64,000 bases of DNA. Origin: Escherichia phage KookSpook. Under the pieces are notes generated by a model, which saw only the letters and a program-made list of their open reading frames with translations, was not told the DNA's origin and ran no database searches. Shown piece after piece: positions 1,827 through 2,024 of the stretch. The stretch lies in the sequence record PP925842.1. One strand, 5' to 3'. The translations under genes and the position numbers were made by a program. Each line of letters opens with the position of its first letter. The stretch's first letter is position 1.

Positions 1827-2024
1827 TTATTGTGGAGGAATATTAATAATTCGTCCATCTACACAATATGCGGTACTAGGAATTGTACTGTATATGTAGA
1901 AATTTTTTATATTACTCTCTCCACCACAGAAATTTTTAGCAAATTCATATTCTTTATTAATGGTTGAATCAAACTTAAAGCAACCAGTAAGTAAAAGTAC
2001 GGACAGTAGTAAAACTTTTTTCAT
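1827..2024 (-). CDS. putative small lipoprotein
   Basis: N-terminus MKKVLLLSVLLLTGC = signal peptide plus lipobox Cys; 65 aa; promoter-like TATAAT/TTGCTA block on minus strand at 2040-2100. Confidence 0.5.
   Translation of the reverse strand: MKKVLLLSVLLLTGCFKFDSTINKEYEFAKNFCGGESNIKNFYIYSTIPSTAYCVDGRIINIPPQ

Follow-up and report, generated by a model that had tools for sequence, protein, structure and literature searches.

In T5, the small periplasmic outer-membrane lipoprotein Llp, which has an intramolecular disulfide and jams an outer-membrane transporter from the periplasmic side, is an established cognate receptor blocker (PMC9586334), and the pairing of receptor-binding protein and llp is mentioned, with a citation, in PMC10644984. 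T5-like phages also encode spanins: a curated survey places T5, SPC35, FFH1, AKFV33 and others in one overlapped two-component family and lists o-spanins, such as T4 PseT.2, that can be structured and possess a pair of essential Cys (PMC6139136), and in genome announcements the lysis cassette of T5-like phages consists of holin, endolysin, i-spanin and o-spanin (PMC4342426). Escherichia phage KookSpook (PP925842.1), of which a stretch of 64,000 nucleotides was analysed (the window), has a gene for a 65-residue lipoprotein precursor at positions 1827..2024 of the window, minus strand, which is compared here with both systems. Its identity and anatomy as a lipoprotein gene can be given with high confidence: it is an accessory, swappable gene of a T5-like phage, independent of the type of receptor-binding protein, of Llp and of the spanin pair. 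The product of the gene is MKKVLLLSVLLLTGCFKFDSTINKEYEFAKNFCGGESNIKNFYIYSTIPSTAYCVDGRIINIPPQ, and its parts and expression signals are as follows.

1827..2024, minus strand: lipoprotein precursor gene (ATG, 65 codons, TAA), from the list of open reading frames (ORFs); match to phrog_6073 with E=7e-28; ratio of nonsynonymous to synonymous substitution rates (dN/dS) 0.025-0.14
1983..2024, minus strand: signal peptide, residues 1-14 (MKKVLLLSVLLLTG), ending in the lipobox L-T-G before Cys15 by the PS51257-type rule
1830..1982, minus strand: mature chain, residues 15-65, with Cys15 (1980-1982) as the predicted acylation site and Phe16 as the +2 residue
2029..2036, minus strand: ribosome-binding site (RBS) AAGGAAAG, read from the sequence, with its GGA core 7 nt 5' of the ATG
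2057..2085, minus strand: sigma-70 promoter (TTGCTA-17 nt-TATAAT), the orthologue of early promoter P13a as annotated in T5

The precursor begins with a basic n-region (MKK), which is followed by a nine-residue uncharged h-region (VLLLSVLLL) and the lipobox L-T-G-C with its Cys at position 15, and so conforms to the PROSITE PS51257-type lipoprotein rule (basic n-region, uncharged h-region of at least 6 residues, [LVI][ASTVI][GAS]C, Cys at 15-35), the acylation itself being a prediction. Just one of the 572 ATG-started ORF variants of at least 40 residues in the window satisfies the rule, and it is the lipoprotein ORF. The lipobox pattern is not significant by itself, because shuffled windows contain a mean of 0.67 such ORFs. 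The first-pass annotation had described a small lipoprotein gene within the tRNA array, encoding a 65-residue precursor with a signal peptide and a lipobox (LLTG before C), and this description holds: the ORF is at 1827-2024, an early-type promoter precedes it, a tRNA-Pro gene begins 9 nt past its stop codon, and the signal peptide and lipobox read from the sequence pass the PS51257-type rule. The three further Cys of that annotation are in fact two, Cys33 (1926-1928) and Cys54 (1863-1865), which together with the lipid-attachment residue Cys15 bring the total in the product to three.

The promoter, at 2085..2057 on the minus strand, is the single promoter-like site found in 1300-2900, and its orthology with P13a suggests that the gene is expressed early. 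In an alignment with T5, a block that includes homologues of stable RNAs, P13a and the RBS is nearly the same as far as the start codon, beyond which divergence is complete; the RBS itself is identical in T5, where it precedes the unrelated ORF T5.066. The lipoprotein ORF is under strong purifying selection, with Nei-Gojobori dN/dS values of 0.025 against SSP1, 0.138 against IrmaTschudi, 0.086 against KKP_3711 and 0.062 against EH3, at dS values of 0.5 to more than 1.5. The possibility that the ORF arose by chance in AT-rich spacer DNA and that its lipobox is fortuitous, for which the local GC content of about 30% and the average of 0.67 lipobox-like ORFs per shuffled window might be cited, is vanishingly small, and the conservation data already refute it: dN/dS is 0.025-0.14 at this degree of synonymous divergence, the RBS and promoter 5' of the gene are conserved, homologues of as little as about 30% identity retain the motif and both Cys, and the structure predicted by AlphaFold2 (AF2) is a confident one. 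Judged from its conserved promoter and RBS, its dN/dS and its family-wide conservation, the ORF is a genuine gene.

The genome in which the gene is found is that of a T5-like phage (Tequintavirus/Markadamsvirinae), with about 90% identity to numerous phages of Salmonella and Escherichia; its nearest relative, at 97.6% identity, is an unannotated record named 'Campylobacter phage C13'. All 19 tRNAs called by ARAGORN in the window are on the minus strand, and the lipoprotein gene occupies a slot beside one of them.

1742..1817, minus strand: tRNA-Pro(UGG), 9 nt 3' of the stop codon of the lipoprotein gene, called by ARAGORN and Rfam
1775..2018, minus strand: cassette swapped relative to T5 and C13, consisting of the coding sequence from codon 3, the 9-nt spacer and the 5' part of tRNA-Pro

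By blastn, homology to T5 and C13 ends at 1774, inside tRNA-Pro, and restarts at 2019/2020 (codon 2), and the alignment with T5 has the same break. These breakpoints indicate that the unit of exchange is the coding sequence together with the 5' part of tRNA-Pro, flanked on one side by the conserved promoter and RBS and on the other by the 3' half of tRNA-Pro. In T5, the slot between P13a and tRNA-Pro is filled by T5.066 (phrog_18174), which likewise follows directly on a P13a-type promoter and RBS, directly precedes tRNA-Pro and is also a very small envelope-targeted protein, but is unrelated in sequence, is 52 residues long, has two transmembrane (TM) helices and has no lipobox. C13 has a T5.066-like ORF in the slot and is missing the lipoprotein gene. 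Of roughly 510-530 T5-like records, about 69 have the lipoprotein (by tblastn, at least 60% identity) and 113 have T5.066-like ORFs, so there must be further occupants of the slot besides these two. No terminator was detected on the minus strand between the lipoprotein gene and tRNA-Pro, and the lipoprotein mRNA is therefore likely to be co-transcribed with tRNA-Pro and the tRNAs downstream.

The gene is located directly 5' of tRNA-Pro in all carriers examined (SSP1, EH3, KKP_3831, IrmaTschudi, KKP_3711 and HK6). In Salmonella phage KKP_3831 (L008 1501-1700) it is interrupted, after about codon 31, by a frameshift, and the annotated coding sequence has only 34 residues; this copy, either a pseudogene or a sequencing error, fits the dispensability of the gene. 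An accessory role also fits the deletability of the T5 tRNA genes, which is mentioned in PMC3357382 with reference to Chen et al. 1976. The promoter and RBS block of the window (2019-2104) has copies of about 76% identity at 7549-7632 of C13 and in HK6 (at about 17973-18056 of the record, locus L015 10973-11056). Repeated early-promoter modules may, along with tRNA genes, act as homology anchors for cassette swapping.

The protein sequence is already known, in that 97% identical proteins have been deposited as 'hypothetical protein', 'lipoprotein' or 'Rz-like spanin', and literature searches found no paper that discusses the gene. The match to phrog_6073, a family labelled 'Rz-like spanin', covers residues 1-63, and 41 of 43 relatives match the same PHROG. 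Neither Pfam nor NCBIfam assigns a family, giving only weak matches at the level of the signal peptide, and no catalytic or known inhibitor motifs were found with them; a search of PDB sequences with the family profile returned only signal-peptide or spurious matches. The family is small: a word-indexed search of 5.8 billion proteins recovered only 22 clusters when grouped at 90% identity, their contigs being either T5-like (about 110-115 kb) or Seunavirus-like (147-161 kb), and an HMMER profile search of 1.84 billion representatives recovered 40 proteins at E<=0.001, nearly all of 61-90 residues. An alignment of 43 sequences has only Met1, Cys33 and Cys54 invariant, and its consensus is K-x-x-x-W-A-x-x-F-C-G-G-x-x-x-I-x-x-F ... 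V-x-C-x-D-G-R-x-x-D-I-P; the motif common to the relatives is K-E-Y-x-[FW]-A-x-x-F-C-G-G ... C-x-D-G-R-x-x-x-I-P. From alignments of 20 and 43 sequences, AF2 predicts the same fold, with mean predicted local distance difference test scores of 81 and 85, respectively, and scores of 86-98 across the mature domain: a helix (residues 20-33) precedes three strands (approximately 39-43, 50-54 and 59-62). The invariant Cys are placed at the end of the helix (Cys33) and in the middle strand (Cys54), and probably form an intramolecular disulfide that staples the mature domain.

The membrane anchor is more variable than the domain that it carries. A lipobox is present in 38 of the 43 family representatives, 27 of them with a residue other than Asp at +2 and 11 with Asp, the latter including P0020 and P0021 of NINP13076-type Seunavirus-like phages; the other five have a hydrophobic N-terminus with no lipobox Cys. 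By the E. coli rule, Asp at +2 is an inner-membrane retention signal. Across the family, the same periplasmic domain thus appears from sequence to be tethered in three different ways, by interchangeable anchors, and the KookSpook protein, with Phe at +2, is predicted to be anchored in the outer membrane.

Genes of phrog_6073 were found only in early or accessory arrays of small ORFs of large virulent phages (T5-like phages, Seunavirus and T4-like contigs). The Seunavirus homologues, for example Salmonella phage SSE121 gp116 and PVP-SE1 gp211, belong to the same family at about 40-45% identity and have the lipobox, the motif and the Cys pattern, but these genes are situated in the early-gene array of a myovirus rather than beside tRNA-Pro, and the upstream neighbour encodes a soluble Cys-rich protein. 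On large phage contigs, distant homologues are embedded in long series of small ORFs that share one strand, among T4-type early genes (Phage_T4_Y00F, Pyr_excise/DenV), GIY-YIG or HNH homing endonucleases and MazG, and no recognisable lysis or tail genes were found beside them in the contexts examined. Such neighbourhoods are the signature of early accessory 'host-takeover' regions.

The first-pass annotation had likened the protein to the superinfection-exclusion lipoproteins of T5-like phages. The likeness is confined to general architecture (a tiny, lipid-anchored protein with two conserved Cys) and does not extend to sequence, profile or fold, for comparison with T5 Llp (77 residues) by BLASTP gave no alignment, and hhalign of the family against an Llp alignment aligned 18 signal-peptide columns and nothing else. 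Llp of T5 and Llp of C13 match the Cor/Llp family phrog_1119 over their full length (E=1e-19 and 6e-26, respectively), whereas the match of the phrog_6073 family to phrog_1119 is confined to residues 1-24; hits of three family members to phrog_1119 (Cor) were rejected, being limited to the signal peptide. Structures of Llp (8A60_B and 7QJF_A) are not among the fold matches of the AF2 model, and the predicted fold is a different one. By these sequence, profile and model comparisons, the lipoprotein is not a homologue of Llp/Cor.

The same annotation had placed the gene in the tRNA array rather than next to the receptor-binding gene, and it does adjoin tRNA-Pro in every carrier examined, whereas llp is divergent from, and adjoins, the receptor-binding gene (oad) in T5, C13 and SP15. 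SP15 is itself a carrier, and encodes in addition both pb5 and Llp of T5 type (94.7% and 96.1% identical, respectively), which means that the lipoprotein is additional to Llp and not a displaced copy of it. Copies of the lipoprotein that are 93-97% identical to each other accompany several classes of receptor-binding protein: the T5/FhuA-type pb5 in SP15; the C13/AKFV33 type in MM-2 (93.7%); the Spc35 type in Spc35, Th1, S124, IrmaTschudi, SE11 and RN29 (67-71%); and an unrelated receptor-binding protein in KKP_3711. C13 has the same type of receptor-binding protein as MM-2, yet is without the lipoprotein. The occurrence of near-identical lipoproteins with at least three or four receptor-binding classes means that there is no co-variation with the receptor of the kind seen for Llp. 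The gene thus appears, from these genome comparisons, to be uncoupled from the receptor of the phage itself, which argues against a cognate receptor blocker of the Llp kind.

Superinfection exclusion in the manner of Llp, by blocking of the outer-membrane receptor used by the phage itself (FhuA, BtuB or FepA), is accordingly a very improbable function. The resemblances (for Llp, PMC9586334) are those of a small lipoprotein precursor (65 residues here, 77 in Llp), anchored, in the present case by prediction, in the outer membrane, whose periplasmic domain has two Cys besides the lipid Cys and whose gene has immediately 5' of it a sigma-70 promoter of early type that is either annotated or predicted; both genes are also accessory, and accessory, variable genes are common among those for exclusion. 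The differences are more telling: homology is absent outside the signal peptide and the predicted fold is unlike; the gene is in the tRNA array and not divergent from the receptor-binding gene, where the carriers already have a cognate Llp; it co-exists with bona fide Llp; near-identical copies (95-97%) occur with pb5 (SP15), with the C13/AKFV33 type (MM-2), with the Spc35 type and with the unrelated protein of KKP_3711; and C13, the closest relative, is without it.

The family label 'Rz-like spanin' has been copied from phrog_6073 into several GenBank and RefSeq records. The spanins of T5 are T5.045 (phrog_739), which has an N-terminal TM domain and helices, and the overlapping lipoprotein T5.044 (phrog_812); they adjoin dnk, about 9-10 kb from the lipoprotein slot. 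The carrier HK6 has a spanin pair 98% and 92% identical to T5.044 and T5.045 besides the lipoprotein gene, for a total of three 'Rz-like spanin' entries in its record, and C13 also encodes a spanin pair. No similarity of the lipoprotein to T5.044 was found beyond the signal peptide. No TM-containing ORF lies directly upstream of it in the window, where there are 450 nt of non-coding DNA, and the upstream neighbours of its homologues in SSE121 (L003) and at three other loci (L011, L013 and L014) have no TM domain (maximum 19-residue hydropathy of -0.08 to 0.47); in these five contexts there is no embedded, overlapping or adjacent i-spanin gene. In addition, 16 of the 43 family representatives are predicted not to be anchored in the outer membrane. 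With no i-spanin partner, a canonical pair retained and this proportion of members predicted to be anchored elsewhere, the label is best taken as an unsupported propagated annotation, and is probably wrong.

The lipoprotein is not the spanin of its phage. That it is nevertheless an Rz1-like o-spanin, pairing with an i-spanin for membrane fusion at lysis, or an auxiliary or alternative o-spanin for a T5.045-type i-spanin, is very improbable. The label and the records that copy it suggest such a role, as do the likenesses to T5.044 and to T4 PseT.2, for the lipoprotein, too, is small, has two Cys on the periplasmic side and is predicted to be anchored in the outer membrane, T5.044-type o-spanins likewise bear the annotation 'Rz-like spanin' by way of PHROGs, and T4 PseT.2 is likewise structured and has two essential Cys (PMC6139136). 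T5.044 and T5.045 belong to other PHROGs, however, with no similarity to the lipoprotein; an i-spanin gene neither adjoins, overlaps nor is embedded in the lipoprotein gene; and many members of phrog_6073 are predicted to be tethered to the inner membrane. Carriers retain a complete canonical pair (HK6, as above, and SPC35 and FFH1 in the curated T5 family, PMC6139136), and the gene is missing from most T5-like phages and frameshifted in one. Two other arguments against a spanin were dropped: that the protein is structured, not proline-rich, and has two Cys, since T4 PseT.2 is also structured with two Cys (PMC6139136); and that an early promoter speaks against a role in lysis, since the lysis and spanin genes of T5 are in the same leftward early block.

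Three 'Rz-like spanin' genes are listed by PHROG-based pipelines for HK6 (L015) and in the RefSeq re-annotations of SSP1, Spc35, FFH1, NBSal005 and SSE121, and in the Seunavirus SSE121 the gene so labelled stands alone, without an adjacent i-spanin partner. This repeated triple-spanin labelling looks like a systematic annotation artefact, by which pipelines propagate an apparently wrong label to dozens of T5-like, Seunavirus and related genomes.

The best explanation of the locus is that of an early, membrane-tethered periplasmic binder. The gene would be transcribed early from the P13a orthologue directly 5' of it and translated from a strong RBS, and its product is predicted to be exported via Sec, acylated on Cys15, cleaved by signal peptidase II and, having Phe at +2, sorted by the Lol pathway to the inner leaflet of the outer membrane. 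There, a linker of about 4 residues would tether the compact 46-residue periplasmic domain, modelled as a helix packed on a three-stranded sheet, which may bind at the inner surface of the outer membrane and lock or mask some component of the host envelope that is not the receptor used by the phage itself. Such binding might serve to protect the infected cell, for instance through the exclusion of rival phages or colicins, or to preserve envelope integrity until lysis. As a whole, this explanation is preferred with rather less than even confidence; its functional part, that the binder alters an envelope component for exclusion or protection, is inferred, and is more tentative still.

Several points weigh against the proposed binder. 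No experimental or homology-based link to any function was found; early timing and co-transcription are deduced from the orthology of the promoter; and anchoring is not uniform, 11 of the 43 representatives having Asp at +2 and 5 of the 43 having a hydrophobic anchor with no lipobox, so that a single outer-membrane target is impossible for the whole family. Mixed anchoring would be better accommodated if the protein, instead of blocking entry, acted in the periplasm to inhibit or modulate an enzyme or machine, or if it tuned the timing of lysis, since tethering to either membrane or by a TM helix is easier to reconcile with a target reachable in the periplasm than with one particular outer-membrane protein. 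Such an inhibitor could act on a peptidoglycan hydrolase, a protease, a Tol/Ton component or an envelope-acting host defence. Matches in structure do not rise above noise, though, with no conserved neighbour pointing to a partner and no catalytic or known inhibitor motifs, and inhibition of this kind is judged unlikely.

A bolder version of the early binder is that phrog_6073 represents a new class of early, membrane-tethered periplasmic 'jammers', carried in a hot-swap slot, that shut down an envelope machine other than the receptor of their own phage; the target could be a second TonB-dependent transporter, a Tol/Ton component or a component of DNA entry. This is a doubtful proposition, and if it were true, the family would provide cross-exclusion of unrelated phages or colicins, a second, receptor-independent layer on top of Llp.

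Other features of the window and of its nearest relative were noted. Upstream of the promoter, the non-coding minus-strand region 2100-2480 is about 92% identical to a T5 region annotated with the stable RNAs RNAIV and RNA2 ('tRNA-like, unknown function'), and contains no tRNA called by ARAGORN and no Rfam family. In positions 1-6000 of the window, Rfam found only tRNAs, and its list differs in part from that of ARAGORN: tRNA-Arg(CCU) at 2482-2556 (minus strand), which has no counterpart at this position in T5, was called by ARAGORN and not reported by Rfam at the gathering threshold; a tRNA-Ala called by ARAGORN at 1028-1106 is likewise missing from the Rfam list; and an Rfam tRNA at 5771-5845 (minus strand, 40.3 bits), which may be the counterpart of T5 tRNA-Ile2(CAU), judging by its position next to tRNA-Ser(GCU), was not called by ARAGORN. 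ARAGORN also reports at 10336-10409 (minus strand) a 'tRNA-Ser' with the unusual anticodon ACT, which may be a tRNA-like element or a miscall. A 96-residue ORF between tRNA genes (3277-3567, minus strand) has several CxxC/CxC pairs and the look of a zinc ribbon. C13 (MG065692, UNVERIFIED; L005/L006) is labelled Campylobacter, yet is a typical Tequintavirus with a T5-type spanin pair and a 585-residue pb5-like receptor-binding protein (30% identical to T5 pb5), the gene of which adjoins that of an 88-residue lipoprotein of the Llp family; the host label looks doubtful.

The lipoprotein gene as it stands is an ordinary uncharacterised accessory gene, of the kind that encodes small early accessory envelope proteins of virulent phages. 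What is added here is the distinction of the phrog_6073 family from Llp/Cor and from the spanins of T5, the delimitation of a bounded swap slot behind P13a, and the interchangeability of membrane anchors within the family. T5-like phages, many of which are used for biocontrol or therapy, thus have behind a strong early promoter a swappable slot that alternates among unrelated tiny envelope proteins. If the lipoprotein is a second factor for exclusion or envelope protection, it would be relevant to the design of phage cocktails and would constitute a new small binder of an envelope target.
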